From assembly GCA_964187785.1 (NCBI GenBank), contig OZ076409.1:41232001-41292000 (forward strand): a stretch of 60,000 bases of DNA, given 5' to 3'. Both the position numbers and the translations under genes were made by a program. Of this stretch, positions 13,414 to 48,282 are shown in pieces (within the stretch, counting starts at the first letter, position 1; each line of letters begins with the position of its first letter). The notes beneath the pieces are model-generated. The model saw nothing but the letters and a program-made list of their open reading frames with translations. It was not told the DNA's origin and ran no database searches. This DNA comes from Amphiscolops sp. MND2022 (lineage: Eukaryota).

Positions 13414-13734
13414 CCGAAGCCTGATCAAATTCATCCAGCCTGAGCATTCATCAAATAAAGGAAGTTTTTAATAAAAATATTGTCATTGGAAACTTTATCA
13501 ATCAACAAAAACAAGAAGTGTTACGAATTTCTCATCCAAATTAGTACAAATAATGAAGATATAGAGTATTCTTTTATATAATGAAAAACAATCAAAATTT
13601 TTTAATGAAGTTGGTTTCCAATGTTGGGCATTTTTCAAAGAAGGTATACAGTATGTGGCATTTATTGAGAGGCGAGTAACATCACGAAGAGCCTAATATA
13701 TAATGATACATTTAGTGTTGAAACTTGTATATAA

Positions 13735-14170
13735 ATTCAGCTGTCTTAACGCTCCTGGAGTCGTTAAAGTCTTTAATCTTATACAAAAAATTAGCTGTCT
13801 TAACGCTCCTGGTGTCGTTAAAATCTCTAATATCAGATAAAATTTTTAAAACTTTACCGACTCCAGGAGCGTTGAGACAGCTAAAATTATAGATGATTTT
13901 AAAGACTTTAACGACTCCTGGAGCGTTAAGACAGCTAAATTTATATACAATAATCAAAACTTTAACGACTCCCGGACCTGGACCAGGATCGTTAAAACAG
14001 CTAAATTTATATATAATATTCAAAATTTTAACGACTCCAGGAGCGTTAAGACAGCTAAATTTATATATAATTTTAAAGACTTTAACGACTCCAGCAGCGT
14101 TAAGATAGCTAAATTTATATAAATTATTTGAAATTGCAACGATTCCAGGAGCGTTAAGACAGCTAATTTT
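13735..14170. repeat. 54-bp-period array (8 units) of the palindromic AACGACTCCAGGAGCGTT motif
   Basis: Cores at 13748 and 13802 (reverse) and 13856, 13910, 13964, 14030, 14084, 14138 (forward). Confidence 0.92.
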
Positions 14171-14364
14171 TTGAGACTGTATTACAGAACCTACTAAAGT
14201 CAGATGACTTAAAGCGTGGTCGCATGAAAATACTGCCAATGTCAATGACAAAATATTGATCGTTTTTCGTTTGATGAGATTTTACTTCGAAACTTTAACA
14301 ACTCCAGGAGCGTTGAGAAAAATCAATATTCGAAATGATTAAACAATCTTTTGAAATCCAGGAA

Positions 14365-21200: not shown

Positions 21201-22803
21201 CGGAGTCAAGTGTTGCTGCCAATATTTCTCCGTCTGTTCCTTCAGATATTTTTCTTGATACTCGTGAAATCAGTTCTTCCGTATTGGGCATTTGTGCTTT
21301 TCTTTTTACTCTTACTTCGTTTAGTTTTCTGGAATCAAGGGCAACCTCTACCGATTTGTCTTTTCTCACCGTTATTCCTGCGAGGCTTACAAAACAAACT
21401 TCGGTAATTTCTGTTGCTCTTTCCACGTATCCGTGTATTATTAGTCGTTTCAGTTTTTGTAGCACTTGGTCCTGGAGGTGTATTGGGATTGATAGTCCGT
21501 TTTGTTGTATTATTTGTGCTCCGTCCTTTAGATTTGTTTTAACAGAGTTTTTTACCTCTTTGTTTTTGTAGAATAAGTCTTTTGATATCCTCTTTTCCGT
21601 GTTGTCCCGTTAAATGTTGTGTATTTGAATTGCATCGTTATTTGAACTGAAGTTTGTTTTCAGCCGTTGCATTTAATCCAAATCCATTAACACAGCTGTT
21701 TGTGCTCTTGTGATTAGCAAACGTAATTCGATTGTTTCTTTGTTTGTTTTCACCTTCGTTTTCGTTTGTCCCGCGAAATTGATCTTTTGACTTTTCACAT
21801 TTTCATTTGTGTTCTTGAGTGGTTCAAGTGGAGTTGTATTGTTGAAAAAGTATTCCGGAATAAGTGTGAGTGGCCAGCCTCTGTCATTGATTAAATTGAT
21901 TCGTACGTTTTTATTCAAAAGTGTGGAGTTGTTAAAGCCTTTCTTCTGTTTGGCGTTCATCTATTTTCTTAATTTTGCTGTGTTTCCAATTGCCTTCTTC
22001 TGCGTACCACGTTGTCCTTTCCACGTTTTGTACTCGTTTTGTTGATCTGCACTTCTTCTCGTAATGGCCTCACCTTTTGCAATTTCTGCATTCTGCCGGT
22101 TTTGCAGACGTGTTGTCTCGACCAATTTGGTGTCCGCATCGGTTATCTCTCTGCATTTGCTTTTGGTATTCCGGTCTTTTCTTTCGGCATCGGATTTGTC
22201 CGTCCATTTTCTTTTGTATGGTCGTTCCTGTACGTGTTTGATTGTTCTCTCATCGGTTAGTCATTTTTCAGTCATACATGTGCTCATGTATTAAAGCTGT
22301 TATTGTTTAAATGGTCATGTTTTTTCTCCGAATTTTCTTCTTTAATTCATAATAGCCTGTTGATCTCCCTATCACGGACAGGAATTTGGATGCTATTATT
22401 TCTGCCGGTGTCACGTTGTCGAATTCGCAGTTCTTTTCCACCTGTAACACCCTTGTCCACACATCTTTCGTGTTTTTTCTCTTGTTATACCAAAGAAATC
22501 TACTGTGGAACTTGCTTCGTTCCGGTATGAAGTGTAACCGGAACAGCGAGTTTAGTTGATTTATGTCGATTCTGTTTGGGTTTTTGCCTCGAACGGTTCT
22601 TGTCATTTTCGTTGTCGCTGACTCGCCCAGTGCCCAGATGATTAAATCCTTGATCCGGTGTTCTAGATCATCTCTGTAGTTCGGTGATATTTCGAGGTCT
22701 GTCGTCATATCGTTGAGGTCGGTATTCTGGGTCATTTTATTGTATTGTGAGAATCTTCTCCACTATCGGTTCGCCTCCTGTATCCCGCGTTTTTTGAATG
22801 TTT
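18239..22803 (-). pseudogene. Gypsy-B gag-pol remnants
   Basis: gag 22307-22735, protease region 21673-21960, RT VALDSRKLN / AWLDDIII (20994-21465), RNase H ~20250-20600, integrase 18434-19304; fragmented. Confidence 0.88.
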
Positions 22804-22809
22804 GGTAAT

Positions 22810-25303
22810 TGTTACGACTACTGTTCGTGTCGTTATTTTGAGTGGACGTTATCCTAACGGATTTAGTTGGAGTATAGAAACTCCTGGTTTCGTTTTCGGT
22901 TTCATCATCTATGCTAATTCTGACGTTTTCCCTTGTTTCAGGCTTCAAGAGTTTCAACATTTCTCTCTGGGATTCTGCTAAAAGATTCTTAATTTCGGAA
23001 GTGATTTCCTCTTTAAGAGATGCTCTTAGACTTTCTAGAAAACTGTTCTCGACCCTGGGGGACTTTGATTTAGATGGCCCTGCTATACTCGAGTCTTGCT
23101 CGACTAGACTAGGATTTTCTACCTCTGCAGGAGAAATGAAACCTTCACTTACATCATCATCAGCGCTGAGCTGAACGTTCTTTCTCTTTTGGCTTCTCGT
23201 TGTAGACATTGTGGTGAAGAAAATATCTTGTTTCTTTGGAGAATTGAATTTTCTTTCAAAGTTTTCAACAAAGTTGAATTAAGTGAGATTGAGATATACA
23301 GGTTAGGTGCAACTGGTTATCACAAAAATCAAAAGACTGAGTCCCTCAATCGTCAAATCCTATCATATTTATACCCTCCCAGCATTATTTGATCACGAAC
23401 AAAGTCCTAATTTCCCTTGAACAATTAGTCATTTCCTGTATTTTCGATGAAAAAATCATTTTGTTCCCAATTTTACGTCGACATTTCGTCAATTTTTGAG
23501 ACACGATGATCTTCATTTAGTATTAGTCATCAAATTTGATCATATCATTTCATCTCGGCGTCCTTTTGCTTCCTCCCAAGCAGGAAGTAGATATTACTTC
23601 AGTCTGTCAAACCGGAAATGCTTCCCTGTTTTACTGCTTTGGTTCGCGGGAAATTGACGCTGAGATGACGCTGACGTGAACAAAAAATACCTGGTTTTGA
23701 ATTTCGCTTTGATAAAAATGCTATGACTAATTTCAAGATAAGGATATTTGAACGATGCCAGGACGATATTTTATGAATTTGGATTCAATCTTTTGCTAGA
23801 GGTGGGAATGAAACCATGATATGAAAATAATACCTTGTTAGCAACTTTGTCATGTCGTGTTACGCACGACGAGATTTACAAAATTAACAACAACGTTTGT
23901 TAAATAGCAACATCAACACAACGTAAATAACTGGATAGCAACGGATGTACTAATATAGGAAAACATGACCACAACCACGAGTACTGCGTTCAATGTTGTA
24001 GAGTACAAAAATGCAAAATATATGAAAAATACATTTCTGGTACACAATATACTTTTTAGTTGGAGAGAATAAACCGTGACTTCCTCATTAATCTACTACG
24101 AAAACTTGTAATAAGATGATTCATGCACTGAAATTTCTTTATTGTTAAGGATACATGATTGTTACTTAACGTGGGGTTGAAATTATCCTATATGTGTCAA
24201 AACGCATTCTAAATTGGGACTTTAAACCATGGAAAAGTCAACAATACATTCGTTATACAATTTGCCACAGTCTGCAATTTTCTCTCTTTAGGAAATAACG
24301 GCATTTGTGTGATGAAAACTTGACTAAATTCAGCAAATTCATCCACTTTATTCAATTCATAAACTTGTCAGCGTCATGTTGACGAGTTTTCTTGGCAGAA
24401 TTTAGGCCTCACAAACTTGTCAACGTCATGTTGACGAGTTTTCTTGGCAGAATAGAGATTTTGACTAGTTTGACGCAATGCTGACGAGTATTTTAGAAAT
24501 GAGTCTCTCGCTAGCTGCCGGCGCAGTGACGTCACGGTGGCGGTAAATTGGAATGATTTCTAGCAATGCTATTAATATAGGCGGATAATTGGAATGATTT
24601 TCTGGTATGCATATGCGAGGCAGTGACGTCAATTGGTATGCCCTCAAACTTGTCTGCGTCCTACTGACGACAAATATACATGTATTCTTGTTTCTTTTGC
24701 CGCTTTGTTTACTCAGCGCAGTATTGACGTCCTAAATCGCTTTAATTGCTGTTCAAAGAGTAATTAAGCTGTCTTTCTAAGAAAAGGCTTAACTACCACG
24801 GTGTGTTGTCTCACTGTAATTTCCTGTTTTAGGTCTAAATGGAATGTATTTTCTCAAGATTAGTTTTGATGTATTTTCATTTAGATTAGCTTATGGTCTC
24901 TTTATTCTTGGGATAGTTTTATTCTAATTTTCAGGTTGTGAATGTTTCATTTGTCGTGGTTGACTCGTCCAGCCAAACATGCGTGAAATCATTTTTGGAT
25001 TATTTTGCTTCCTTATTTCATTTCCGCCCAAATTTGCGCGCGGTAAATGTGTATTTTACAATTCCGGTACTATTTTATTCAATTTTGCGAGGGCATGAAA
25101 AATTTAGAACGCGTTCACTAGTTTTATTTGGAATTTTTGTTAAGCGAAAGTATTATTGCATTTCAAGTCACAGTTTATTTGAATTTAGTTAGAGTTCGAG
25201 TTAATAGCCAAAATACTCTTCGTGAGTCTTGCGGTGCACCCATGTCCACGCCCAAAGCCAACTCTCCTGCATCCGCAATCCAGTCCGGGAGCGGACTGTG
25301 ACA
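22810..25303 (-). repeat. Gypsy-C 3' LTR
   Basis: TGTTACGA...TGTGACA, near-identical to 36586-39079. Confidence 0.97.
24361..24730. repeat. LTR motif cluster (52-bp duplication plus degenerate GTCA-N9-TGAC copies); also at ~38136-38505
   Basis: aaacttgtca.cgtcatgttgacgagttttcttggcagaat twice, plus three variants. Confidence 0.8.
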
Positions 25304-25931
25304 GGGCCACTGTCATGGGACGAACGGCTTTGCCGGGTTGATTGAAGTCGAACGCCTGGCGCAGGTGATTTTCGCGAGTGTAGTTTTCCTTGGCTTCATC
25401 TAGCATTAATTTCGGCTCCTCCAGATCGTTTAGAGGACTAGTTGTCAGCAGATTTATTCTTCTCAGTGGACCAGGGGGCGTGACAAAGTATGAAGTGGCG
25501 TCTTCTTGCTGCACCTTCTCCAGATATTCGGCTACTTTGCTACTTGTTACTGATTCGGTTTGGACAGCTGGGGCTTCTACTATGAATTTGTCCGAAGACA
25601 AGCTTTCATCAGGGCTTTCCGGGGAGTCAGCAATAACTTCTTCGGTCGACTCAGAGTGGGGGTATTGTCCCGATTCTACAGTTTCAAAACTAGAGAACGA
25701 CTCACTCAGCTTCAATTTCTTGCATTCTGTTTCTAGTGAATTTACCGATAGGTCGAGGCATTCTTCTTCGTCTGCGTTCGCCTCTGCAGATGAGTTCAGA
25801 ATTTCGATGATCAATCCCGGATAGGCCCTGCTGTCACTAGGTATTGGGGTGGACGATCTTGTTATTTCGCCCTCCTCCTCGCTTGATGACGAGATGTCGA
25901 TTAGTTCGTAGATATCTAACAAGTTGTTCAT
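25185..25931 (-). CDS. Gypsy-C accessory ORF (248 aa, acidic/Ser-rich, SIM-like motifs), ends inside the 3' LTR
   Basis: Intact ATG ORF divergent from the antisense gene; LIDISSSSEEE, IIEILNSS, LDLSVNS. Confidence 0.6.
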   Translation of the reverse strand: MNNLLDIYELIDISSSSEEEGEITRSSTPIPSDSRAYPGLIIEILNSSAEANADEEECLDLSVNSLETECKKLKLSESFSSFETVESGQYPHSESTEEVIADSPESPDESLSSDKFIVEAPAVQTESVTSSKVAEYLEKVQQEDATSYFVTPPGPLRRINLLTTSPLNDLEEPKLMLDEAKENYTRENHLRQAFDFNQPGKAVRPMTVALSQSAPGLDCGCRRVGFGRGHGCTARLTKSILAINSNSN

Positions 25932-26370
25932 TCTGCAGCGAAGTTTCTTGGCTGCTGTTTTCCGAGTTTGATTGTTTCACAATGAATTTCCCGGATAATT
26001 AGGATTACTGAGAATGTTGGGATAAATCCCTTCATTCTGATTGGTTAATCAATCTTTTTAATCCTTTCGATCTGCAGTTGTTGACGTTATGTCGACAACT
26101 CTTTTTATTGGCCAAGAAATTGAAATAATTCCTTTAGCCAAACTTGTCAACGTTATGCTGACGTCATTTTCGCTAGCTTAGCTAACTTTTGTAATTTGTC
26201 ACCGTTATGATGACGTCATTTTAGATTACAGGATTAATCTCTTAATCTCTATAACCTTTTTGTCGACGTTATGCCGACGTCAATTTTGTTGGTTGAGAGC
26301 CAACTTCAAGTTTTGTCACCGTTATGATGACGTCAATTTGGTTGTTGTTTTCAGATTTGCTGTTTAAACA
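25932..26370. promoter_or_regulatory. putative bidirectional promoter with five GTCA-N9-TGAC motifs
   Basis: Lies between divergent ATGs; motif at ~26080, 26146, 26198, 26262, 26315; ATTGG (CCAAT) boxes near 26040 and 26108. Confidence 0.55.
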
Positions 26371-29300
26371 ATGGATTCTGATCCAGTTCCTCCTCGTGCG
26401 GGTTCTGGTATTCAAGGTGGGCATGAGACGCAGTATTTGTTTTCAGAGGGGGACATTCACGAAAGTGATGCTGACCCTCTGTTTTCACAGTCTGCTGTTG
26501 GTAAGTTTGTCATTCCCCGATCCATTAAGCTTTTGTGAATAATACTACTATCAGATAGGCCTTTTCTGTTTCGTATTTCCACAGCTTAGGTTTTCTGACG
26601 CGTCGATTTGGGAATGTTGTTTCAGTTCCTGTGGTGACAGGGTCTTCTCCTGTAGCCGTCGTCTCTGCCCTACCGGCTGTTTTAACTGAGGTTTCTGTTG
26701 AACCACTTGTCGATGCCGCTGAGATTCCTCGTGCGCTTCCTGGCAGTTCCGTTGAGTCTACCAAGATCGGATCTGCTCTTTGTCCTTCCGATGATCTGGA
26801 TATGACTCTGGGGGCACTTGCGCGACAGCTTCATTCTTCCTCTGCTGTTGTTCCTCGCGGAGGTGAGGGTTATCCCCCCCTCTCAGAGATACTGAGCCAG
26901 GACGAGGGAAAGATCAAGGGACTTCTGGGGGGCCTGGAGTGGGGTTTCAGAAGTCATCTCCACGATTCAGTGGTTTTTTGTCTGGATCCGCTCGGGCTGA
27001 GGGATCGCAGGAATCTTCTCCAGTGCCCAAGCGTGGTAAGTATATTGTTTGGCTGCATTATTTGTTTGCTGTTCCTTTCCTATGGTTGTGATGGGTAATC
27101 ATTTCTTTGCTGGTGTGTTTCTTAATTAATGTTTTAACTAGGTTGCTTGGTGGCTGTTGGCGTCGAGGATTCTGTGGTTGGTGAGACGACGCGGCAGCTT
27201 CGTTCAGATAAGAATCAAGTCCCTGGCAAGTCTGTACACTTCAGCCTTTGTAGTAGTGATGGGGAGGAAGTGGATGCTGCAGATGTTCCTCAGAGTTCGG
27301 CACCCCGATTAGGACATGAGATTGCTGCCGTCCCAGATGTAGAGGGTCATTCCGTGGATCCTTTTGTTGCCAGTAAGTTCTGTATTATGTTGTTGTAAGT
27401 GTATTAGTCGGCTCAAAGGGTGTTGTTATCTTTGGAATAGGTATGGGGGGGGAAAATATTCAAGGTTTCCTATGGGTTTTATGGGGTGTGACTTTGTGTT
27501 ACAGAGTTCGAGGAGCTGATCAGGCGCATGGAAATGACACTGGACAGTGCTTCTCGGAATCGGAAGCGAGTGTACAGTCCAAGGCATAGATTGCGGCGGG
27601 ATATGGTTACTGGTCATCCAATCTTCGAGCTCTTTGTCAGTGGGTCCAGTACTGGGTCGGATAAAGCTTTCCACTGTATGATTTGTCAGCGGGATGTGTC
27701 CATGGAGTCACGAGGGGCTGCTGAGTTTTCTCGTCATTTCTTTGGGAAACGGCACTGGCAGCTCGACGTGGCTTATCGGGTTCGCAATGACATGCCTGTG
27801 TATAATAGATTGATGGACCCTATGATTCTGAGTGAGAGTCAGGTGGCAGAATACCGTGATTGGCCCAGTAAGGGCAAAAGCGAGGGATTTAGTTTCCCTG
27901 AAGACTTGCTGCCAGCGTGTACCCAGGTCAATTCTAGTGTGCCGCTAATGACAATGGTCAATTGCCTTCTTGAACTGTTGCGTTCTGGAGGTAGCTATAC
28001 TCTGCTACGTAGATTGTGGGGCAACTTTCGCGCGACTCTGGGTCGTGACAATCCCCTCTATAGTCTGAATTGGAGTCAAGTCGAGTCCTTGGTTAGTTGT
28101 GTTTTGGACGAATACTCTTCTTTGCATGTATCTGTCGTGTTTCCCTCATTTTTGTCTTGTCATTGATATTATGGATATTGAGTTCTGTTGCAGTTGGGTC
28201 CGTAAGTGTGTCATGGTAAGGTAGTTAGTTTTGTGTTTTAGTCGCTGATCTGCCGTGCACTGTTTCCACGGGCTTTGCGGATGTTGATTGCGCGTATCTC
28301 TGCTTTTCGGGAGTACAGCGTGTTTTTCGTGGAAGACGATAAGTCCCAGAAGTGCTTTGTGCAGACGTGGGATGATCACAGTTTGATGAGTGTTTGCGTG
28401 TGGGTGGAGCCTCTGGGGCAGGTTGTTCCCAAAGCAGAATTGTCTGGGTTGTCACGGATTGTTGGCAGTACTTCGTCGTGCCAGTTGCCTCTTTCCTATC
28501 ATGGGGGCAGTCCCACTCTGGTACGCGTTCTCAGTGACAATCGGGTTGACGGGCGGAGTTTCCTTCTGTTTCGTGAATTCAACACTGATGTATTTCTGCA
28601 TTGCTTCCGTCTGGCCTATCAGGAGACATTTGGAGGACTAGAGGTGACTACGATGGTGGATTTCCTAGTTCTTCGTCTCCGAGGTGCCCTGCAGGAATCT
28701 TGGCTGGAGAATGTGACTTCACTACGTCGGTGTGTCGCTGCTGGGCGGGTTCCATTCAGTGAGCTGTGTAGTGTCGTGCGTGATTTGATCTCTGTATGGC
28801 GTTCTGTGCGGAATTTCATTAAAGACAGTGCTCCACGACATATCAAGACTGAAGCTGGCAGGGTAATTTATTTCATTTGTTATCTCTTTCTTTTGTTGTT
28901 GTACTTTGGTGAGGTGCTCGATGTTATTGTGATTGTTCTCCAACTGGCTTAGGGTGGTGTTATTTTGTATTGCTTTTGCAAGCTTTGCGTTGTGGAGAGT
29001 TAGGTTTTTTAGTGCTCACGGTTGTTGTTTGTTGTTGTAGATGCGAGGTACAGACTGGACTATCTACTCTGATGGTATCGGTGAGCTGCGTTTGGGTCTT
29101 TTGTTGCACATCTTGGAGCTCTTTCATTGTACGTTCAGAAAGCAGTTATCGGGGCGGTCAGACTACAGTTTCCACTTTTACATGGAAGTATGTCAGTTTG
29201 TCTACTGCCTATTATCGCGCACCCGAAAGATTGGCTCTCTTCCTGATTTGAATGATTGGGAAGAGTATATGGATGAGCAAAGAGTTGATGAGTTCGAGAA

Positions 29301-30369
29301 TGTTGCCGTCTGTAACTTTTTGTCCAATCATTCCTTCGGTGTCGTCCTGCAGAACCGCAAAGATGGTGATGGTCGTATTTTCCGAGAGCAGTGTTTGAAG
29401 TTCATGGATCGGCTAGTCGATGCAATTCTTGCGCAGCAGCCTGTGACTGGGGAGTTTTCCCGGGGGCTCTATGCCTTTTGCCCTGAGTTATTGTTGGAGG
29501 GTGATGATCGTCGGATGCTGGAGCTTTTCCAAAAGTTGGTCCGTGTGCTGGAATTGAGTGGTTGTATTACAGCGTTGGAGTCGAGGACTGCTGTCGAGGA
29601 GTATTCTACTTTTGTTGTGGATGCTCGGAGAAGGCATTTGAGTGGTGGTTGTAGTGCGGAGGAAATTCCTGATGTGAAGCAGTACCTATTGTCGGACTAT
29701 AGTTTCCTGTCACGCAAGGCGCTGTGTCGTGTCTTCAAGTTATGTTGCTTGGTCGTCTTGAAACCCCGCAGTGATTTTCCTTCTGTGGATATTACGTGTG
29801 CTGGTTGTCAAGTTCCTGATTGGGTGGTGACCACGTGTGTGTGTGGTGTGCAGAGCAGTGTCTCGTCCGCTGATTTTAAATTGGGAACCTTTTTCACGAA
29901 GTTTACCATGAATGAAGTTCGGGAGTCAATTAGTTCTGCTCGTTCGTTTATGTCGCAAGTGGATTTCGATCCGTGGGCTGGGATCTGCAGTGACAGTCAT
30001 GCCGCATTTGTGGAGCGATATACGGAGCTGTTCAATGCACGTATGAGTCGTAAGAGGGGGTCTGGTTCCCAATCGACTAATGTTGTCGCTGAGTGCAGTC
30101 AAAAGGTGCGACCCGATGGTGACGATGGTGTTTCTGGCGATGTTCTTTCTGACAGTGCCGCTTCAGCTGTGTCCGCTCCTCCTGTGCCTAGTTCGAGTGG
30201 TTCAAGCTCTTTCAGGCAAAGTAAGGCACCGATTCACAGTAGTTTGGCTTCGTTGCTGGGTCGAAAAAGAGATGCCTCAAATAGTAGTGATCAAGTTGGG
30301 AAGAAGTCCAAGAAGGGATCCAAAAAGTCTGCTGTCAAGGGAGGAAAATCGTCCGCGAAGAAGGCTTGA
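26371..30369 (+). CDS. antisense 6-exon accessory gene of Gypsy-C (~1100 aa), zinc finger, possibly hAT-transposase-derived
   Basis: Exons 26371-26500, 26626-27035, 27142-27372, 27505-28091, 28242-28862, 29041-30369 with GT-AG introns; 4 of 5 junctions in phase, one needs +1 nt (probably the C7 run 26874-26880). Finger CMICQRDVSMESRGAAEFSRHFFGKRH; basic C-terminus. Confidence 0.8.
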
Positions 30370-30785: not shown

Positions 30786-33700
30786 CTATGGGTTATCCCC
30801 TACGTCTGTAGTGAGATTTGAAAAGTCCGGGGACGGCGGAGTCACTTCGTTTGTATCTTCGGTCGATTTTGATGCCGACATGTTACCGTCCGAGTTTGTC
30901 ACCTCTTGTATTTCCGTTCTTTGTTCGGTCTCTACGTTTTTTAGTGGCTCTTGTTCATCGATTTGTTTTCCGAAATCCATTTCCCATGATACTGCATACC
31001 ATTCATTGTGTGAAATTTTGACGTCTGGATCCGGTAGGTATTCGTTTGACCGTACTGTAACGTCGGGTATGCGTTGATCTGGCACATAGGGTCGTATTCT
31101 AATTCGATGCAGAGTTTGTGTATATCTCGTGCCAGTTTTTCGTATCGTATAGTTATTGTTTGATAATACTTTTATTACTATGTATGGTCCCGTCCAAATG
31201 CAATCTTGGAATGCAAATTTTGTCGACTGACTGTCAGCTTTCGGGTTAAGGATGTAACAATAGTCATTCACTTTAAGCGGGGCTGCAGAAGCCTTGCGGT
31301 CGTAGTATTTTTTGTATTTGAGATAAGATAGCATGATGTTATCTTTTGCTGTTGCGCGGACTTCGTCTATTTGCTTCTGTAATTGTTCTGTTATTTCCGA
31401 ATTAGGCGTAGTCTTCCATTTTGGTTTGATGCCTAGTTTCAGGTCTAGGACATTGTAAGGTATGCGGCCATGAAATACCGTGGATGGTTCACATCCTAGT
31501 GTTTCATGATACGTTGTGTTGTAGTTCATAACTGCAATTTGGACGTATTTATGCCACATTGAACGTCTTTCGCCTGTCGATATTTTCAGTGCAGTTTTGA
31601 TTGAGGCATGAGTTCTTTCTAGGATTCCAATTGTTTGTGCGTGTTTTGTAGACGCATGACTGATTTGTATTTCCAAGATTTGCGTTATTTCTGCAACGAT
31701 TTCTGATCTGAATTGTGATCCTTTGTCAGATAAAATTAGTGTTGGCAGATATGCGTGTCTTGTCATGACGTCCACGATGCATCGTCCGATTGTCTTCGCT
31801 GTGACATTCTGCGTTGGATAAGCAAAAAGATATCTTGAGAATACGTCTATCATTGTGACGATGTTCTGATATCCTGCAGAATTTGGCAGGTTCGGTAGTA
31901 TGTCGATTTCGAGGATATCTTCTGGTCCGAGAACATGTTCCGTGTTGTTGATCATCTTCGGTCGGATTTGGTTGTTGTTGATCCTTTTGTATTTGATACA
32001 GTCTTCACATTGCATTACCCACTGTTTGATTCTTTTGGCTAACCCAGGGTAATAGTATTTGGATCTGCATTCTTGGATCATTTTTGTAATTCCAGGGTGT
32101 TTTCCCATCTGTCCGTGAAGGGCTTTGAGGAGTTCTGTGATCAAGTGCTCGGGGATTAGTATTTGATGATGTGTGACCTGTCCACATTCCCCGTAGTATT
32201 TGCGCATTAGAATTCCGTCTTTAACTATTAGTCTATTTTCGTGAACTAAAAGACGTTTTGCTGTTGTGTCCGTTTGTAGAAGATGTTTGTCGTACTCTTC
32301 ACATATCAGCTTCTTTTTGATTGTTTTGAAGACTGGGTCTGAGTCTTGTTCTACTCTGATGCGTGCATCTTCCTTTATTGCTCCGAAGGTATATGATGCT
32401 TTGTTTAATGGGATCGGGTTCGTTTCTTTGATGGCTAGTTTGATTCTTGTCGAGTCTTCGTCGCGAGCGGCTTGTCTAGCTTGTTCTTTCTGCAGTAGTA
32501 TTTCTTCTTCAGTTTCAATGGTTTCTTCTGGCAGAAAGAAAAGTTGTTCTTCATCGGCGACGTCCGTGGATTGTAGGTTGACTTGTATGGGTCGCACAGT
32601 GATGTCGTTTCTGATCTTTAGTTCGACTCTTTCTTTGGGATTGAGATCAATTCGTGATAGGAAGTCAGCCGCAGTGTTTTGCGTCCCTGCAACGTGCATG
32701 ATGTGGAAGTTGAATTGTAACACATAGTCGCATGCATTCCAAAGTGTGGGAGGGATCGTTTTTGTTTGAAAGAATCTTTCAGATCCGACAGATCTGTTGT
32801 CGGTCATTACCAGAGTCGGTAGGGTTGTTTCCCATAATATGTGGCTGTATTCTAAAAAAGCATGGTAGATCGCTAGGAATTCTTTGCAATAAATGGACAT
32901 TTTCAGTTGTGCTGGTGAGAATACTTTTGATCCAAATGCCACTGGTGCAAACGTTTTCTTTTTTGAATTGAGTTTTTTGTTTGGGTCTTCCTCAATCATG
33001 AGTGCGTACCCTGAGGCTCGAAAACTTGCGTCTGTCATTAGGACGTATTGTCGTCCTGTGATCGGTTGTCTCAGTGCTAGCCCACATGCTTCTGCTAATG
33101 CTGTGTTGATGGCTTTGTAGTGATCGAGTAGTTCTTCGGTCACCTTGATTTGTTTGTCTGCTTTCAGGAGTTCGTAGAATCCGAGTAGTTTTTCTGAGAG
33201 TCTTGGGATATAGTTTCTGTAGTAATTGACGAATCCGATGTATCTTTGTACCTGTTTTTTGGATTTGGGAAATCTGACGTTTGCCAGGAATTTTTGGATT
33301 CTGTGGTCCTGTGGGGCGATTCCTTGTGGAGTTATGGTACGTCCGAGGAATTCGATTTCAGTCACTCCAAAGTGACATTTTTCGATGGTTAGTTTTAGTC
33401 CCGCTTGTCTGATACATTCGAAGACAGCTCTGATGTTGCGTATCAGTTGCGTCACAGAATTAGCAGCTACTCCAATGTCGTCCACATATTGCGCGCACTG
33501 GTCAGCTTTGATGACTTTATCTAAGTACTCTCTCATGAAGCTTGAGAAAGCTGACAAAGCCCTGCTCAGGCCTTGAGCTAGACGTTTGTATGCAAAGGTT
33601 CTGCTCGCAAAGTTGAATGCCAGCATTTCTATGGATCTTTGGTCCGCCATTTGTAGGCAGTGGTATGCTTGGGAGCAGTCTAGTTTGCAGAATAATTGTT

Positions 33701-35546
33701 TTCCTGCTAGGTGTTGCGCGGCGTCTGATAATGTGCTGACTGGGTGGTTGTTGTTAATGTAGTCGTCCGATATTAGTGCATTGATCTTTCGGAGGTCGAC
33801 AAGTAGGCGTAATTTTCCATTTGGTTTGCGTTGTGCGAAGATAGGGCTGGCGTATTTGGAAAACGGTAGGGTCGTTATGATGCCATATCTATGCATTAAT
33901 GCTAGTTCGACTGTTAGGTCTTCTTTTAGGTTGATTGGTACTGGCAGACTCTGGGTGTAGATTGGTCGTTCATCTTTTGGCGTTAGTTTTACTTTGAATG
34001 TGTTGTTGATGCCAATGTCGAGTCGGTGACGTGCAAAGATGTCGTTGTATTCAACTATCGTTTCTTCGAGTTGTTTTCTGTCATCTCCTTCGATTTTTGA
34101 GCCTTCCCAACTGAACATATCAAGGAATTTCTTTCGCGATTCTTGGTCTTTTGTTGGATCTAGCTGTTCTTTTTGGATGAGTTCACGTATTTCCTTTAGT
34201 ATTCTCCTTTGAATTGGCGTGTGTTCATCCTCGTTGCCTGGGTTTTCAGGTGTGGGGAACCAGAAATTTTCGTCATTTTGTTCACTCTCTTTGGATTTCA
34301 TGAGTTCGTTGACATACATGTGGGTGTCATCAGGATCTTCTAACAATTTGAGTGCTGCGGCGTCTACTGGTCGTATTTGTTTCGTGTCCTCGGGTTTGAG
34401 GATTTGTAGTTCAGCCAGTTTTGTGTGACTCTTTATTGTATGAGGGAAATCCGTTAAGTTGGCGATTCGGATGTTGAGCCTTTTGTTGTGAGCTGTCGCT
34501 AGTGCTGGTGCAACGATGATTGTCGCTGTTTCATCAAATTGGGGTAGTGGTTGTACCGCTCCAGTGACGTCATGCATGTTTGTGGTTATTACTATTGCGT
34601 TCACTGTTGTTGTTTGTTGGGGCGGTAGGGTTTGATTTCCTTCTACCATTATTTGGAGCGGTTTCGGGTTGCATTTTTTCATCTCGTCCGTCATGGCTAG
34701 CGTCATTTCAACGTGCGGGAAATTAATGGTCCCGTTGGCAGTGTCTATTACTGCTTGGTGATTTCTCATGAAGTTCAATCCTATGATGGGAAATGACGTT
34801 TTCGATAGGATGACGAAGGTGTCCGTGAAGGTATATGTTCCGATGTTGAACTGGATGTCCGCTGTTGCTATTGGTTGTTCTAGTTGTGCGTTTGCGCATT
34901 CGATCTTGAAGGGAGGTTGAGGGTATTCTTTTATGACACAACTATCACTGTTCATTTTGATTGCGTTGTAGTCTGACCAGGACATGGCATTGATGAACGC
35001 ACCGGAGTCGACAAGTCCATCCATTGTTATTTCGCCGAATTCTAGTGGCAAATACAGCATTCTCCTTCTGCTCTTGAGGTCTATAGTGGAGTGGAGAGGT
35101 ATATATGTTTCTCCATCCTTTTCGGCTACGTACTCCTTGATTGAGTTGAGTGATGTGGGGAAATCATCTGGGAGGTTGGGCAGTTTGATGTGGTTTTGGG
35201 GATCCTTTTCGTCTATTTGTGGTGGGTATTTTCCGGTGGGCTCAATTTCATCCTGGTTTAACTGAGGTATGCCGGTATGTTCTTCGGTTGTGGTGATTTG
35301 GGGAAAGGGTGCTTTTGGGTGCATGGTGTTTTCTCGGTAGTCTTTGTCTTGAGGGTAAGGGTCCTGTTGTTGGATTGGTGGGTTCAGTCTTTTCATAGTG
35401 GCAAGTGCCTGGCGTCGTAGCCAGTCTTCTGTTGGGGTGCCATCACATTGGATTGTTGTCTCAGAGGCGTATGTAGTAGGGGGATTTGTTGGAGAGTACG
35501 CCCTCGAGTCTACTGTTTCCCCGAAGCGCAGGCGCGGCGTAACTAG
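30786..35546 (-). CDS. pol: Gypsy-C Pol (PR-RT-RNase H-INT)
   Basis: LVDSGA protease, YVDD RT, TDAS/TDN RNase H, HHCC zinc motif, DDE core (ILSDKGSQF, LERTH), WTGPY; Gypsy domain order. Confidence 0.97.
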   Translation of the reverse strand, partial: LVTPRLRFGETVDSRAYSPTNPPTTYASETTIQCDGTPTEDWLRRQALATMKRLNPPIQQQDPYPQDKDYRENTMHPKAPFPQITTTEEHTGIPQLNQDEIEPTGKYPPQIDEKDPQNHIKLPNLPDDFPTSLNSIKEYVAEKDGETYIPLHSTIDLKSRRRMLYLPLEFGEITMDGLVDSGAFINAMSWSDYNAIKMNSDSCVIKEYPQPPFKIECANAQLEQPIATADIQFNIGTYTFTDTFVILSKTSFPIIGLNFMRNHQAVIDTANGTINFPHVEMTLAMTDEMKKCNPKPLQIMVEGNQTLPPQQTTTVNAIVITTNMHDVTGAVQPLPQFDETATIIVAPALATAHNKRLNIRIANLTDFPHTIKSHTKLAELQILKPEDTKQIRPVDAAALKLLEDPDDTHMYVNELMKSKESEQNDENFWFPTPENPGNEDEHTPIQRRILKEIRELIQKEQLDPTKDQESRKKFLDMFSWEGSKIEGDDRKQLEETIVEYNDIFARHRLDIGINNTFKVKLTPKDERPIYTQSLPVPINLKEDLTVELALMHRYGIITTLPFSKYASPIFAQRKPNGKLRLLVDLRKINALISDDYINNNHPVSTLSDAAQHLAGKQLFCKLDCSQAYHCLQMADQRSIEMLAFNFASRTFAYKRLAQGLSRALSAFSSFMREYLDKVIKADQCAQYVDDIGVAANSVTQLIRNIRAVFECIRQAGLKLTIEKCHFGVTEIEFLGRTITPQGIAPQDHRIQKFLANVRFPKSKKQVQRYIGFVNYYRNYIPRLSEKLLGFYELLKADKQIKVTEELLDHYKAINTALAEACGLALRQPITGRQYVLMTDASFRASGYALMIEEDPNKKLNSKKKTFAPVAFGSKVFSPAQLKMSIYCKEFLAIYHAFLEYSHILWETTLPTLVMTDNRSVGSERFFQTKTIPPTLWNACDYVLQFNFHIMHVAGTQNTAADFLSRIDLNPKERVELKIRNDITVRPIQVNLQSTDVADEEQLFFLPEETIETEEEILLQKEQARQAARDEDSTRIKLAIKETNPIPLNKASYTFGAIKEDARIRVEQDSDPVFKTIKKKLICEEYDKHLLQTDTTAKRLLVHENRLIVKDGILMRKYYGECGQVTHHQILIPEHLITELLKALHGQMGKHPGITKMIQECRSKYYYPGLAKRIKQWVMQCEDCIKYKRINNNQIRPKMINNTEHVLGPEDILEIDILPNLPNSAGYQNIVTMIDVFSRYLFAYPTQNVTAKTIGRCIVDVMTRHAYLPTLILSDKGSQFRSEIVAEITQILEIQISHASTKHAQTIGILERTHASIKTALKISTGERRSMWHKYVQIAVMNYNTTYHETLGCEPSTVFHGRIPYNVLDLKLGIKPKWKTTPNSEITEQLQKQIDEVRATAKDNIMLSYLKYKKYYDRKASAAPLKVNDYCYILNPKADSQSTKFAFQDCIWTGPYIVIKVLSNNNYTIRKTGTRYTQTLHRIRIRPYVPDQRIPDVTVRSNEYLPDPDVKISHNEWYAVSWEMDFGKQIDEQEPLKNVETEQRTEIQEVTNSDGNMSASKSTEDTNEVTPPSPDFSNLTTDVGDNP

Positions 35547-35552
35547 TTTTTT
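35495..35552 (-). promoter_or_regulatory. -1 ribosomal frameshift signal
   Basis: A AAA AAC directly before the gag TAG, followed by a GC-rich stem (TACGCC...GGCGTA); the -1 frame is open for 50 codons into the pol ATG at 35396. Confidence 0.85.
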
Positions 35553-36985
35553 GAGTCATCATTACTTTTAGTTGCTGTTTGTTGGGCCGATGATTCTAAA
35601 GTGCGCTCCTGAGTATGGTGTCTCTTGGGTCGGGGGTCATTTGCTGCATTGGCACCGTTCCAGCAGTCTTCAGTTTTGTGAGGTTTGCCACAAGTTTCAC
35701 ATTTAAGTGTTTTTCCTGTGGTATTGTTGTTGTGCCCGTTATTCTTCCGGGTTTGTTGCCACTTGTCTCGTTTTAGCTTTCGGCATTCGGCTTTGTAGTG
35801 GCCAAATTTGTTGCAATAAAAACAGTATCCTTTTTTAGGGTGCTGCGTCGTGTTCTCGACTGGTTTTGTTTCCGTCTTAATAGGGGCCTGTTCTATTGTG
35901 TTGAGAGGTACTAAGTTGACCTCGTCTGGTGCCCCAAGGCCGTTGAGTCGCATTTCTCGTTCCAGATGGAGCACTATATCGTTGTAGGGTTTGTCCTCGA
36001 GGTATGCCCTGTTGAGGATCTTTTTCACGTGATCGGGCATTTTTGCATAGATTGCTTTATCTCTGAATTGTTGTGCCTCAGCTCCGAAGGCTTCTTTTGC
36101 AGTTTTCTGGAGGACATCCAGGAATTCGTGTAATTTTTGTGTTGAGGGGTCGAATTTGAGAGAGTCCCACTCGCATCTGGCTTTTGCCATTGATAGATAG
36201 TCGCCAAAACGACGTTTAAAAATTGTCATTATCTCGTCCAATGAGTCTTTCTTGGTGTCCTCAATGTTGCAAAATGCTTGTAAGGCGTCCCCTCTGAGGA
36301 GTGAGTGGAAGTAGTTGATCTTTTGAAGTTCTGTGAGATGTGGGTACATCTTTAGGTTGTTGCGAAACAGATCCTCGAATAGTTCAAACTTTTCGGATTT
36401 CCCATCGAAAGTTGGGAGTGATGCCGTTAATGCCTTCGGCATAGGTAGTATTGTGGAGTCACTCTTTTCTGCTCCAAACAGTGTTCTGGCCACTGCTAGG
36501 CGCTCTTTTGGCGCAGGTTGACTTTGGGACCGTTTTTTTGGTCTTTTTACCTGGTTGGTGGAGTCGTTTAAAACTCCTGTCACCATGTTACGACTACTGT
36601 TCGTGTCGTTATTTTGAGTGGACGTTATCCTAACGGATTTAGTTGGAGTATAGAAACTCCTGGTTTCGTTTTCGGTTTCATCATCTATGCTAATTCTGAC
36701 GTTTTCCCTTGTTTCAGGCTTCAAGTGTTTCAACATTTCTCTCTGGGATTCTGCTAAAAGATTCTTAATTTCGGAAGTGATTTCCTCTTTAAGAGATGCT
36801 CTTAGACTTTCTAGAAAACTGTTCTCGACCCTGGGGGACTTTGATTTAGATGGCCCTGCTATACTCGAGTCTTGCTCGACTAGACTAGGATTTTCTACCT
36901 CTGCAGGAGAAATGAAACCTTCACTTACATCATCATCAGCGCTGAGCTGAACGTTCTTTCTCTTTTGGCTTCTCGTTGTAGACAT
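35543..36985 (-). CDS. gag: Gypsy-C Gag (480 aa)
   Basis: LPTFDGK capsid-start motif; zinc knuckles CFYCNKFGHYKAEC and CETCGKPHKTEDC. Confidence 0.93.
   Translation of the reverse strand: MSTTRSQKRKNVQLSADDDVSEGFISPAEVENPSLVEQDSSIAGPSKSKSPRVENSFLESLRASLKEEITSEIKNLLAESQREMLKHLKPETRENVRISIDDETENETRSFYTPTKSVRITSTQNNDTNSSRNMVTGVLNDSTNQVKRPKKRSQSQPAPKERLAVARTLFGAEKSDSTILPMPKALTASLPTFDGKSEKFELFEDLFRNNLKMYPHLTELQKINYFHSLLRGDALQAFCNIEDTKKDSLDEIMTIFKRRFGDYLSMAKARCEWDSLKFDPSTQKLHEFLDVLQKTAKEAFGAEAQQFRDKAIYAKMPDHVKKILNRAYLEDKPYNDIVLHLEREMRLNGLGAPDEVNLVPLNTIEQAPIKTETKPVENTTQHPKKGYCFYCNKFGHYKAECRKLKRDKWQQTRKNNGHNNNTTGKTLKCETCGKPHKTEDCWNGANAANDPRPKRHHTQERTLESSAQQTATKSNDDSKN
36568..36585 (-). promoter_or_regulatory. 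Gypsy-C primer-binding site (tRNA-Leu-like, uncertain)
   Basis: TGGTGACAGGAGTT directly after the 5' LTR. Confidence 0.65.
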
Positions 36986-39079
36986 TGTGGTGAAGAAAAT
37001 ATCTTGTTTCTTTGGAGAATTGAATTTTCTTTCAAAGTTTTCAACAAAGTTGAATTAAGTGAGATTGAGATATACAGGTTAGGTGCAACTGGTTATCACA
37101 AAAATCAAAAGACTGAGTCCCTCAATCGTCAAATCCTATCATATTTATACCCTCCCAGCATTATTTGATCACGAACAAAGTCCTAATTTCCCTTGAACAA
37201 TTAGTCATTTCCTGTATTTTCGATGAAAAAATCATTTTGTTCCCAATTTTACGTCGACATTTCGTCAATTTTTGAGACACGATGATCTTCATTTAGTATT
37301 AGTCATCAAATTTGATCATATCATTTCATCTCGGCGTCCTTTTGCTTCCTCCCAAGCAGGAAGTAGATATTACTTCAGTCTGTCAAACCGGAAATGCTTC
37401 CCTGTTTTACTGCTTTGGTTCGCGGGAAATTGACGCTGAGATGACGCTGACGTGAACAAAAAATACCTGATTTTGAATTTCGCTTTGATAAAATGCTATG
37501 ACTAATTTCAAGATAAGGATATTTGAACGATGCCAGGACGATATTTTATGAATTTGGATTCAATCTTTTGCTAGAGGTGGGAATGAAACCATGATATGAA
37601 AATAATACCTTGTTAGCAACTTTGTCATGTCGTGTTACGCACGACGAGATTTACAAAATTAACAACAACGTTTGTTAAATAGCAACATCAACACAACGTA
37701 AATAACTGGATAGCAACGGATGTACTAATATAGGAAAACATGACCACAACCACGAGTACTGCGTTCAATGTTGTAGAGTACAAAAATGCAAAATATATGA
37801 AAAATACATTTCTGGTACACAATATACTTTTTAGTTGGAGAGAATAAACCGTGACTTCCTCATTAATCTACTACGAAAACTTGTAATAAGATGATTCATG
37901 CACTGAAATTTCTTTATTGTTAAGGATACATGATTGTTACTTAACGTGGGGTTGAAATTATCCTATATGTGTCAAAACGCATTCTAAATTGGGACTTTAA
38001 ACCATGGAAAAATCAACAATACATTCGTTATACAATTTGCCACAGTCTGCAATTTTCTCTCTTTAGGAAATAACGGCATTTGTGTGATGAAAACTTGACT
38101 AAATTCAGCAAATTCATCCACTTTATTCAATTCATAAACTTGTCAGCGTCATGTTGACGAGTTTTCTTGGCAGAATTTAAGCCTCACAAACTTGTCAACG
38201 TCATGTTGACGAGTTTTCTTGGCAGAATAGAGATTTTGACTAGTTTGACGCAATGCTGACGAGTATTTTAGAAATGAGTCTCTCGCTAGCTGCCGGCGCA
38301 GTGACGTCACGGTGGCGGTAAATTGGAATGATTTCTAGCAATGCTATTAATATAGGCGGATAATTGGAATGATTTTCTGGTATGCATATGCGAGGCAGTG
38401 ACGTCAATTGGTATGCCCTCAAACTTGTCTGCGTCCTACTGACGACAAATATACATGTATTCTTGTTTCTTTTGCCGCTTTGTTTACTCAGCGCAGTATT
38501 GACGTCCTAAATCGCTTTAATTGCTGTTCAAAGAGTAATTAAGCTGTCTTTCTAAGAAAAGGCTTAACTACCACGGTGTGTTGTCTCACTGTAATTTCCT
38601 GTTTTAGGTCTAAATGGAATGTATTTTCTCAAGATTAGTTTTGATGTATTTTCATTTAGATTAGCTTATGGTCTCTTTATTCTTGGGATAGTTTTATTCT
38701 AATTTTCAGGTTGTGAATGTTTCATTTGTCGTGGTTGACTCGTCCAGCCAAACATGCGTGAAATCATTTTTGGATTATTTTGCTTCCTTATTTCATTTCC
38801 GCCCAAATTTGCGCGCGGTAAATGTGTATTTTACAATTCCGGTACTATTTTATTCAATTTTGCGAGGGCATGAAAAATTTAGAACGCGTTCACTAGTTTT
38901 ATTTGGAATTTTTGTTAAGCAAAAGTATTATTGCATTTCAAGTCACAGTTTATTTAAATTTAGTTAGAGTTCGAGTTAATAGCCAAAATACCTCTTCGTG
39001 AGTCTTGCGGTGCACCCATGTCCACGCCCAAAGCCAACTCTCCTGCATCCGCAATCCAGTCCGGGAGCGGACTGTGACA
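36586..39079 (-). repeat. Gypsy-C 5' LTR
   Basis: Near-identical to 22810-25303; followed on the - strand by the PBS. Confidence 0.97.
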
Positions 39080-39198
39080 GGTAATGTAATTGGTTGGTGG
39101 GTTTTTCGGTTTCTGAATTTTCTCTTTTGGAGATTTCTCCGCTTGAAGAACTTGTGCTCTTCGCTGATTTTTGATTCTCCATCTTGCTGACTGCGCCA

Positions 39199-39976: not shown

Positions 39977-42175
39977 TTAGTCGGCGCTTTATCCTTTTAA
40001 GGAAAAATGCCCGACTATAGCAGTGACGTTTTTTAGTCGGCGCCTTTTCCCTTAAGGAAAAAAGCCCGACTCTTACAGTGAGTAGTTTTTTTTTCAGTTG
40101 ACAATCTCACTCTGAGTGGTCCACTTTTCTTACAATATGTTCATCTTTCATATTTGTTCATCTTCCATCTTCGACCCAGCCGGAGTGCGTGGGTTCGATT
40201 CTCGCACTAAACCATAAATTTTTTTAATGCTTCCAAAAGTACAGGTGAGACCAAAGGGCCCCCCCTTTGGGTTTTTTTCGGCACTATGCGACTTTTTTCG
40301 AAAATTTTTGTAATTTATCAAAGGGTACCCCCTTGCATTTTTTTTGAAATTTTCGGTTTGTAGAAAACGTTGAATGAGCCTGAATGGCCTTTTTTTTGAG
40401 TTTTTCGGCATTTTGCGACTTAAAAAATACTTTTTTTTCGAAAAAAATTCAAAAATAATTTTTTTGAAAAATTTTTTTTTCCAAATTTTTACAATAGTTG
40501 TTCCTTGAATATTTTTGAGCCTAAGATATGGCGCCGACTTGGGACGTTCCCGTCTTGTTAGTCGGCGCCTTTTCCCTTAAGGAAAAAAGCCCGACTCTTA
40601 CAGTGAGTAGTTTTTTTTTTCAGTTGACAATCTCACTCTGAGTGGTCCACTTTTCTTACAATTTGTTCATCTTTCATATTTGTTCATCTTCCATCTTCGA
40701 CCCAGCCGGAGTGCGTGGGTTCGATTCTCGCGCTAAACCATAAATTTTTTAATGCTTCCAAAAGTACAGGTGAGACCAAAGGGCCCCCCCCCCCTTTGGG
40801 TTTTTTTCGGCACTATGCGACTTTTTTCGAAAATTTTTGAAATTTATCAAAGGGTACCCCCTTGAATTTTTTTTTGAAATTTTTGGTTCGTAGAAAACGT
40901 TGAATGAGCCTGAATGGCCTTTTTTTGAGTTTTTCGGCATTTTGCGACTTAAAAAATACTTTTTTTTCGAAAAAAAATTTCAAAAATAATTTTTTTGAAA
41001 AATTTTTTTTTCCAAATTTTTACAATAGTTGTTCCTTGAATATTTTTGAGCCTAAGATATGGCGCCGACTTGGGACGTTCCCGTCTTGTTAGTCGGCGCC
41101 TTTTCCCTTAAGGAAAAAAGCCCGACTCTTACAGTGAGTAGTTTTTTTTTCAGTTGACAATCTCACTCTGAGTGGTCCACTTTTCTTACAATTTGTTCAT
41201 CTTTCATATTTGTTCATCTTCCATCTTCGACCCAGCCGGAGTGCGTGGGTTCGATTCTCGCACTAAACCATAAATTTTTTAATGCTTCCAAAAGTACAGG
41301 TGAGACCAAAGGGCCCCCCCTTTGGGTTTTTTTCGGCACTATGCGACTTTTTTCGAAAATTTTTGAAATTTATCAAAGGGTACCCCCTTGCATTTTTTTT
41401 GAAATTTTCAGTTTGTAGAAAACGTTGAATGAGCCTGAATGGCCTTTTTTTGAGTTTTTCGGCATTTTGCGACTTAAAAAATACTTTTTTTTCGAAAAAA
41501 AATTCAAAAATAATTTTTTTGAAAAATTTTTTTTCCAAATTTTTACAATAGTTGTTCCTTGAATATTTTTGAGCCTAAGATATGGCGCCGACTTGGGACG
41601 TTCCCGTCTTGTTCTTTCTTCAGACTACAATCCTCACACTGATCGGTCCACTTTTTAGAAACAACCCTGAAACCACCTAAGGCGCCAAGTCCGGCCAAGA
41701 GGCCAAGGCAAACTCAGTGTAAAGGGTCCCCCTTTCATTTTTTACTTTTTCAAGGCAACTTACAAAACCGGACGGGACTAAAAAGTCCCCCCTTTCGATT
41801 TTTTTTGGCACTGTGCGACTTTATTTCTAATTTTTTTTGTCTCCAAAGGGTCCTTCCTTTCATTTTTTACTTTTTCAACGTAACCTACAAAACCGGCCGA
41901 GACTAAAGGGTCCCCCTTTTGGTTTTTTTCGGCACTGTGCCACTTTTTTTTCGAAAATGTTTCAATGTCCCCAAAGGGTTCCCCCTTTGAGTTTTTTGTT
42001 ATTTTGCAACAAAATGCATGCTTATAAATCAAAAGGGTCCCTTTTACATTTTACGGCACTGTGCGACAGTTATCGAAAGAAAAAATTTTCGAAAATTTCA
42101 AGTTTTTTTTCCAAAAAAATGTTTTGCGCTTTTTCAGCATTAGATATAGCGCCGACTTTAGACGTTCTCGTCTTG
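39977..42175 (+). mobile_element. older Helentron/HINE-like copy interrupted by the tandem array
   Basis: 5' hairpin at 39979-40016; body resumes at 41612; ends GCGCCGACTTTAGACGTTCTCGTCTTG-TTTTT. Confidence 0.6.
40033..41611 (+). mobile_element. three head-to-tail copies of a ~525-bp non-autonomous Helentron/HINE-like element
   Basis: Units 40033-40557, 40558-41088, 41089-41611; subterminal inverted AGTCGGCGCC/GGCGCCGACT, 5' and 3' hairpins, TT junctions, no TSD. Confidence 0.75.
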
Positions 42176-44513: not shown

Positions 44514-44694
44514 AGAAAATTAATAATTATTCAGCTCAATTTAAAATTATTCAAAAACCAATGAATGCCAATGAGAATCAATTTGATGAGAAAATAATAC
44601 AAAAAATAATTCAAAAAAGAAATTATCAAAACAAAACCGAGAATTTATAAATAAGATATCCGCAAGTGGATTTAAACAATTTTTCTCCTTATAA

Positions 44695-45726: not shown

Positions 45727-45735
45727 TATATATAA

Positions 45736-46138: not shown

Positions 46139-46189
46139 ATTTACAGCCTTGGAGAAAAATTTAATATTGTTTTTTATGAATAATAAATT

Positions 46190-48095: not shown

Positions 48096-48282
48096 TTATT
48101 TAGTAAAAAATCACTAAATCACTAAAACAAATTCACAAAGAGCATGATGTTTTAAGTGTAACTTATTTGCTTAGTGACAAAAAAATGCTCTTAGTGAATT
48201 TGCTTAGTGATTTTACTAAGAAAATTACCAAGAAATCAAACCCCTTTTTTGTGTACCGGAGGACAGCTTTGCTGTAAATATT

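Follow-up and report, generated by a model that had tools for sequence, protein, structure and literature searches.

The window analyzed here is a 60,000-nt stretch of DNA from Amphiscolops sp. MND2022 (assembly GCA_964187785.1, contig OZ076409.1, positions 41,232,001 to 41,292,000 of the forward strand). On its minus strand lies a Ty3/gypsy retrotransposon of 16.3 kb, which encloses a gene in the opposite orientation, hereafter the antisense gene. Six plus-strand exons are found between pol and the 3' long terminal repeat (LTR), and every intron is GT-AG, which bears out the gene model of an initial annotation made from the letters of the window. The peptides quoted in that annotation are present in the sequence, and four of the exon junctions are in phase, as it had claimed. 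The fifth, between exons 2 and 3, is out of phase because the window copy carries a frameshift inside exon 2, and its splice product stops at aa 236. The gene is composed as follows.

26371..26500, plus strand: exon 1, starting with ATG (GT-AG model)
26501..26625, plus strand: intron 1, with GACGCGTC at 26597-26604 and a 20-pair hairpin at 26526-26588
26626..27035, plus strand: exon 2, of low complexity, with the frameshift at ~26874-26927 and a C run of variable length at 26874-26880
27036..27141, plus strand: intron 2 (GT-AG)
27142..27372, plus strand: exon 3, fast evolving (GT-AG model)
27373..27504, plus strand: intron 3 (GT-AG)
27505..28091, plus strand: exon 4, the most conserved exon, with a C-x2-C-x16-H-x5-H finger at 27675-27755
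28092..28241, plus strand: intron 4, precisely missing in loci L133-L143 and in the relative P0090
28242..28862, plus strand: exon 5, a proposed RNase H-like core without the catalytic Asp, as mapped by eye
28863..29040, plus strand: intron 5, missing in L133-L143
29041..30369, plus strand: exon 6, with a helical region, a putative hAT-dimer-like end and a Ser-rich, then Lys-rich tail (GT-AG model)

This model was assessed in 40 sister loci, picked across 95 scored exon 6 matches (60-98% identity). Donors 1 to 5 are kept in 40, 39, 40, 39, and 39 of these loci and acceptors 2 to 5 in 40, 39, 37, and 39, so that nine of the ten splice sites are kept in 37-40 of the 40. Acceptor 1 falls in the same column in 30/40 loci; in the D-type copies shown it is shifted downstream by 6-7 nt. 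By comparison, 82 control GT/AG dinucleotides from elsewhere in the introns have a mean conservation of 15% in 30 distant loci, and none reaches 90%. The annotated length of ~1,100 aa does not hold for the frameshifted window copy, but a 1,102-aa product is open in 9 of the 11 closest sisters. Across the whole sample, 14 of the 40 loci have an open spliced frame of more than 1,000 aa, and many of the non-open copies are off-frame in exon 2, at the C run, whose length (5-12 nt) may vary through slippage or assembly error. Upstream, an acceptor-like TTT..CAG lies within 40 nt of the ATG in 35 of 41 copies, which suggests a further 5' intron and an upstream exon.

Relatives that lack introns provide a second line of evidence. 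In P0090 and L133-L143, exons 4, 5, and 6 read through in one frame, with an offset of 0 for the joint at intron 4 and of 0 to -6 nt for the one at intron 5. This exact absence, which in one clade takes in introns 4-6, confirms the predicted exon joints; L133-L137 retain the conserved 5' splice sites. A sixth intron is found 82 nt into exon 6 (between 29122 and 29123) in 19 of 20 subfamily C/D loci as modelled, L060 being counted by exon offset and L065 being partly deleted. It is exactly missing in subfamilies A and B and in L150, which belongs to another clade. In the gene tree (FastTree, midpoint root), A and B branch from within lineages that have the intron, so that intron 6 was lost in them. 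For introns 4 and 5, on which the tree has no rooting, we infer loss rather than gain. Exact, 3'-biased intron loss is expected from recombination with reverse-transcribed spliced mRNA, a process established for host genes. In addition, P0096 and P0136, both probably from another species, seem on inspection by eye to have one more intron, in frame, toward the end of the exon 6 region. Taken together, the conserved splice sites and the exact intron losses indicate that the gene is almost certainly expressed as its own spliced mRNA.

The element that encloses this gene has the following parts.

22804..22809: left copy of the target-site duplication (TSD) GGTAAT, a repeat at the element edge
22810..25303, minus strand: 3' LTR, its inner edge without a purine tract
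25188..25931, minus strand: orfX, a second accessory open reading frame (ORF), sense, 248 aa, which extends into the 3' LTR
26078..26350: array of four to five imperfect palindromic repeats, between the start codons of orfX and the antisense gene
30786..35555, minus strand: pol (aspartic protease-reverse transcriptase-RNase H-integrase), ending earlier than in sister copies
35543..36985, minus strand: gag (DUF1759, zinc knuckles), whose frame starts ~400 nt inside the 5' LTR
36586..39079, minus strand: 5' LTR, followed by TGG, the start of the primer-binding site (PBS)
39080..39085: right copy of the TSD GGTAAT, a repeat at the element edge

The two LTRs are direct, 99.7% identical and end in TG...CA; the TGG directly follows the 5' LTR, and the 6-bp TSD is present on both sides. 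The pol domains are in gypsy order, gag carries DUF1759 and zinc knuckles, and the closest relative of pol in the PDB is Ty3 Gag-Pol (E 6e-45). The interval between pol and the 3' LTR measures about 5.5 kb. The family is large, with at least 150 matches to one exon in the genome.

The antisense gene is a regular part of these elements. In 40/40 close loci, pol lies on the opposite strand just past the last exon, and the same arrangement is found in 19 of 20 distant-clade loci, in which pol is 58-76% identical. In the twentieth, L140, gag and an LTR are present, pol is deleted and the antisense frame is open. All 60 gene loci thus sit in such elements and, reciprocally, the gene is carried by 15/15 pol copies at ≥96% identity. 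The initial annotation had raised the possibility that the region has terminal inverted repeats (TIRs) and a TSD of its own, or is absent from sister copies. No TIR pair flanking the gene was found (the longest candidate spanning it has 14 nt at 86%), and the 15 close pol copies show that it is not missing from sisters. As for individual loci, L140 (G000:C13:36192700-36202650) is an internally deleted element, L148 is rearranged and has a second fragment of the antisense gene, and an intron-poor clade includes two near-identical copies 40 kb apart in opposite orientation (G000:C5:40514273, plus; C5:40553937, minus).

Comparison of copies also shows purifying selection. Over exons 4-6 (740 codons), close copies have a ratio of nonsynonymous to synonymous substitution rates (dN/dS) of 0.10-0.13, and distant pairs with measurable dS one of about 0.04-0.07, the pairs farthest apart being saturated. 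Of the five other frames, four give dN/dS values of 1.0-3.8; the fifth, a reverse frame with third positions in common, has 0.15-0.27. Exons 1-3 evolve faster than exons 4-6, and the analysis found no excess of replacement changes in the gene. A profile search of 1.84 billion proteins returned 563 relatives, ten of which were looked up and are ENA proteins without a name, and a second search gave 35 long proteins. P0216, P0222, and P0015 match the source genome at 98-100%, whereas P0136, whose best match there is 36%, is probably from another species. These findings show that the antisense gene is a real, selected and integral multi-intron part of the element, and not a secondary insertion.

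Next, we consider what the protein might be. The initial annotation had noted a resemblance, in order, to the N-terminal finger, first catalytic strand and dimerization region of hAT/ZNF862-like transposases, with no clear DDE. In the finger, each ligand (Cys72, Cys75, His92, and His98) is kept in at least 89% of both clades. A basic C-terminal tail, in which the initial annotation saw a putative nuclear localization signal, is present in all clades, and the protein may therefore be nuclear. When searched in the ESM Atlas, exon 6 matches Dimer_Tnp_hAT and FAM200/GTF2IRD2 clusters at 0.93-0.94, and residues 1-780 of P0216 match Dimer_Tnp_hAT, DUF4371, FAM200-ZBED5 RNase-like, and zf-C17orf113 clusters at 0.90-0.93. 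For both queries, which represent clades only 23-38% identical (P0216 versus the window exons), nine of the ten best family matches belong to one clan. The finger block aligns weakly (E 0.03) to the N-terminal fingers of hAT proteins of the source genome. By eye, motifs follow the hAT order and are collinear over about 650 aa: the finger comes first, then three strands (among them a Y/F-S-hydrophobic one), x-G-(A/G/C)-S, F-x13-W, and finally two helices paired at the C-terminus. By contrast, the positions assigned by eye to the first two Asp residues, to CxxH and RW, and to the last Glu are variable or replaced. In agreement with the initial annotation, no conserved acidic residue is present in the alignment at the DDE positions, as these were placed by inference. 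On this basis hAT ancestry is likely and, given that ancestry, catalysis would very probably have been lost.

A further property of the gene is that its alleles move between element backbones. In the pair L057/L061, the proportion of synonymous differences (pS) is 0.04-0.08 in pol and 0.08 in orfX, whereas it is 0.76-0.82 in the antisense gene, with a proportion of nonsynonymous differences (pN) of 0.13-0.24. The same pattern of a recent backbone with an allele diverged to saturation at synonymous sites is seen in L138/L141 (0.03-0.08 in pol and 0.65-0.74 in the antisense gene), in L138/L142, and in L145/L150 (0.03-0.16 in pol, and a pN of about 0.3 in the antisense gene). Across the gene, DNA identity in swapped pairs drops from about 97% to 45-75% and recovers at the pol end. 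Whole alleles have thus been exchanged between element backbones at conserved flanks. Because the LTR/orfX region and parts of pol are mosaic as well, general recombination between co-packaged RNAs may suffice to explain this exchange.

The element also contains repeats on which the protein might act. The array at 26078-26350 is built from a TGACGTCA-like core at a spacing of 52-66 nt, and similar palindromic repeats occur in the LTR at 24357-24730. The array is a candidate two-way promoter or set of binding sites, a role proposed from its sequence and position. Within intron 1, GACGCGTC is kept in L133, L144, L147, and L150, in which pol is only 59-72% identical, and not in L138. The finger of the hAT transposase Hermes binds quasi-palindromic repeats, and the Hermes protein oligomerizes, according to the available part of the source (PMC10368747).

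These observations lead us to propose, with a probability of roughly 0.6, that a retrotransposon lineage has made a hAT transposase, catalytically dead, into a nuclear regulator of its own, encoded by a spliced antisense gene whose deeply diverged alleles are exchanged as a cassette. A Ty3/gypsy ancestor would, as seems likely, have taken in a hAT (Buster/DUF4371-like) gene, reversed, between pol and the 3' LTR. Its introns would persist through retrotransposition because the genomic RNA carries them in reverse, in which form they are not recognized by splicing. The antisense mRNA would be transcribed from the 3' LTR or from the array at 26078-26350. The protein would have lost its catalytic residues, and a predicted finger, folded core, and basic tail would have been kept under the strong purifying selection described above. 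It might be a nuclear DNA-binding factor, oligomeric and sequence-specific, that acts on the palindromic repeats of the element (in the LTR, at 26078-26350, and in intron 1), keeping the element transcribed or shielded from silencing; we give this role slightly less than an even chance. Introns at the 3' end would have been lost stepwise, probably via the recombination with reverse-transcribed mRNA mentioned above, and alleles would have been swapped between backbones by template switching. As a whole, the combination of hAT capture, spliced antisense gene, nuclear DNA-binding regulator, and allele exchange is the best explanation we have, and stands about an even chance of being right. Thus, where the initial annotation had suggested a transposase-derived regulator domesticated by a retrotransposon, the antisense gene of the element and its selection stand, the hAT origin is at the level of a lead, and a regulatory function would be an extrapolation.

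Several results weigh against this proposal. No Pfam or NCBIfam hAT match was obtained in 107 members. The Atlas matches score just under the confidence marks of the tool (recognition 2294 versus a level of 2300; 162-164 shared features versus 170), and are therefore leads only. When the 107-row profile was compared by hhalign with the hATs of the source genome, the E value (0.86) was no better than that of reversed controls, and in block-wise comparisons the core and C-terminal blocks fell off the expected motifs; the template set was small and mostly of Ac type. The 54 hAT-type loci fetched did not include a donor hAT. Among pol copies at 84-86% identity, 7/25 pair with the gene among the matches listed, the other 18 being unpaired there. 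Finally, the array at 26078-26350 was not found by blastn in distant clades, in which the putative binding sites would have to differ. In addition, PDB sequence searches with the antisense protein gave no match, and the sole predicted model, of exon 6, has a pLDDT of 38 and is too poor for use, so that the fold searches made with it are uninformative.

That the protein is not hAT-derived at all, but goes back to a gene taken up from the host or has an orphan fold whose finger looks similar by chance, would account for the blank alignment-based tests, and shuffled proteins do reach an Atlas score of 0.9 in 4-10 of 100 cases. Two queries as diverged as those used here nevertheless point to the same clan, and the motifs are collinear by eye. 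We consider this explanation rather unlikely.

The properties of intron 1 would fit a different activity, in which the protein, whether hAT-derived or not, binds the genomic RNA of the element in the manner of Rev or CERV, for example at the intron 1 hairpin, and drives the nuclear export or packaging of unspliced RNA. Intron 1 is 78-90% conserved, above its flanking exons. In the hairpin, 96.5% of cells are paired and three pairs show two-sided changes, and the covariation score exceeds that of 500/500 shuffles, a figure that relatedness can inflate. G-U variants favor the genomic-RNA strand. Fingers with H-x5-H spacing also occur among RNA-binding jaz/matrin fingers, and one member matches zf-C2H2_jaz, at E 2.2. 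CERV of Cer1 would be a precedent (PMC10309623, as far as its available part goes). On the other hand, folding of single sequences gives the hairpin modest z-scores, from +0.2 to -2.8 for the strand of the element, the hAT-like lead points toward DNA binding, and the hairpin may have nothing to do with the antisense protein and serve as a packaging signal or a site for a host factor. An RNA-binding role, the main alternative for how the protein works, is unlikely.

Still less probable is a helper of integration or nuclear import, i.e. a dead transposase that would anchor the integration complex by binding chromatin or the ends of the LTRs. The basic tail found in all clades would fit, hAT proteins bind transposon ends via their fingers and oligomerize (PMC10368747, part available), and such roles have been proposed for antisense ORFs (PMC7264820, part available), but the free exchange of alleles next to one and the same integrase speaks against a close contact shaped by co-evolution. 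We are slightly more doubtful of a copy-number control or specificity locus, in which the protein or antisense RNA restrains the element or its rivals and frequency-dependent selection keeps the alleles. Deeply diverged alleles on shared backbones, and the coincidence of the exon 2 run with many off-frame copies, would be expected from it. Yet recombination also shuffles LTR/orfX and parts of pol, so that neutral template switching suffices, the run may vary through slippage or assembly error, and replacement changes are not in excess. Last, a secondary DNA transposon insertion or a noncoding artefact, to which the frameshift in the window copy and the 26 of 40 sisters without an open product >1,000 aa could be ascribed, has a negligible probability and was rejected, the gene being in the same slot in 60/60 loci with pol identity down to 58%, without a TIR pair, and with dN/dS far below 1.

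Other features of the element and of the window deserve mention. No clear polypurine tract is present at the 3' LTR edge (25304-25320), where orfX is coding; distant clades have short purine-rich stretches near this edge. The element strand does have a purine tract, rich in G, 1.6 kb upstream of the 3' LTR, at 26874-26880 in antisense exon 2; it is 5-12 nt long among copies. Both LTRs carry a possible N-terminal Gag extension (36586-36985 and 22763-23278, minus strand), and a second gag ATG overlaps the LTR/PBS boundary. Near 30786 (minus strand), conserved coding-like sequence goes on for ~190 nt past the pol stop of the window copy. The accessory protein orfX is found in every clade examined, with about 185-300 aa, and is acidic, Ser-rich, and probably disordered. 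It is under purifying selection (pN 0.19 and pS 0.73 versus L041), and has no match in Pfam or NCBIfam. It starts with a hydrophobic-then-acidic stretch, which we take to resemble a SUMO-interacting motif. Elsewhere in the window, a 14.4-kb element of low GC content (43870-58309) has ~185-nt TIRs starting with AGTAGT, an AAAGTG duplication, and an rve integrase at 49322-50197, and is presumably Polinton/Maverick-like. There is also a ~530-nt unit repeated three times in tandem, its copies being 97-98% identical (40030-41613), a near-perfect palindrome with 98-nt arms (9052-9248), and a series of ~54-nt repeats that occur in either orientation (13714-14327).

How does this gene compare with known systems? 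The closest parallels are the antisense ORFs (aORFs) of plant Ty3/gypsy elements (gene23 of Grande, RIRE2, TRP28/PF04195 of Retand, and PvRetro13), which lie antisense between pol and the 3' LTR, occur in most copies, and are conserved (PMC7264820). The product of gene23 is nuclear and the gene has its own promoter; TRP28 is a "transposase 28" predicted to bind DNA (PMC7264820; PMC11963269). In the available part of the 2020 review, plant aORFs have no similarity to other transposable elements (TEs), a TE-insertion origin is rejected for that reason, and both origin and function are stated as open (PMC7264820). The antisense gene resembles them in its slot, its presence in most copies, and its purifying selection. 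It differs in its size (~1,100 aa) and its five to six introns, the word "intron" being absent from the available part of the Retand paper (PMC11963269), and in that a hAT origin is indicated here where the review leaves the origin unknown (PMC7264820). No PF04195 or Zn2Cys6-like domain was found by Pfam in the 107 members. An antisense accessory gene in the same slot is also provided by brtn of Boty-like gypsy elements of Botrytis and Sclerotinia, as cited in the accessible part of PMC8365987. In the portions available of papers on animal elements, no antisense accessory gene is described for rotifer ORF3s (PMC5408684), Oikopleura Tor (PMC4402516), Lamellibrachia (PMC8220671), errantiviruses (PMC13524379), or Cer1 CERV (PMC10309623); TE accessory proteins in general are treated in PMC13547354, PMC5418596, and PMC12477816, likewise available in part.

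The hAT Buster/DUF4371 branch and the domesticated FAM200, ZBED5, GTF2IRD2, and C17orf113 include the nearest Atlas clusters and share the N-terminal finger and a core of transposase length. Unlike them, the antisense gene has no TIRs, DDE, CxxH, or RW, escapes detection by Pfam and hhalign, and has a retroelement, not the host, as its keeper. CERV of Cer1 and HBZ of HTLV-1 are likewise accessory nuclear proteins of LTR elements, made from a spliced mRNA and an antisense mRNA, respectively. The plant mobile domain is another domain common to Gypsy elements and DNA transposons, but MULEs acquired it from Gypsy or host genes, and it is not a transposase. We found no hAT-derived antisense gene in an LTR element in the literature outside subscription papers and Repbase. 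If the hAT link is true, this family of hundreds of copies with young members would be a direct example of the TE-insertion route to an antisense accessory gene, with a traceable origin, and one class of mobile element would have domesticated the core enzyme of another. The family is also a natural series in which to follow how an accessory gene exchanges alleles and how introns disappear inside a retroelement, intron 6 and introns 4-6 being exactly missing in independent cases. Thus, although the layout of an antisense accessory gene in the slot between pol and the 3' LTR was already known, the size, intron number, probable transposase-like origin, and allele exchange of the gene described here appear to be new.

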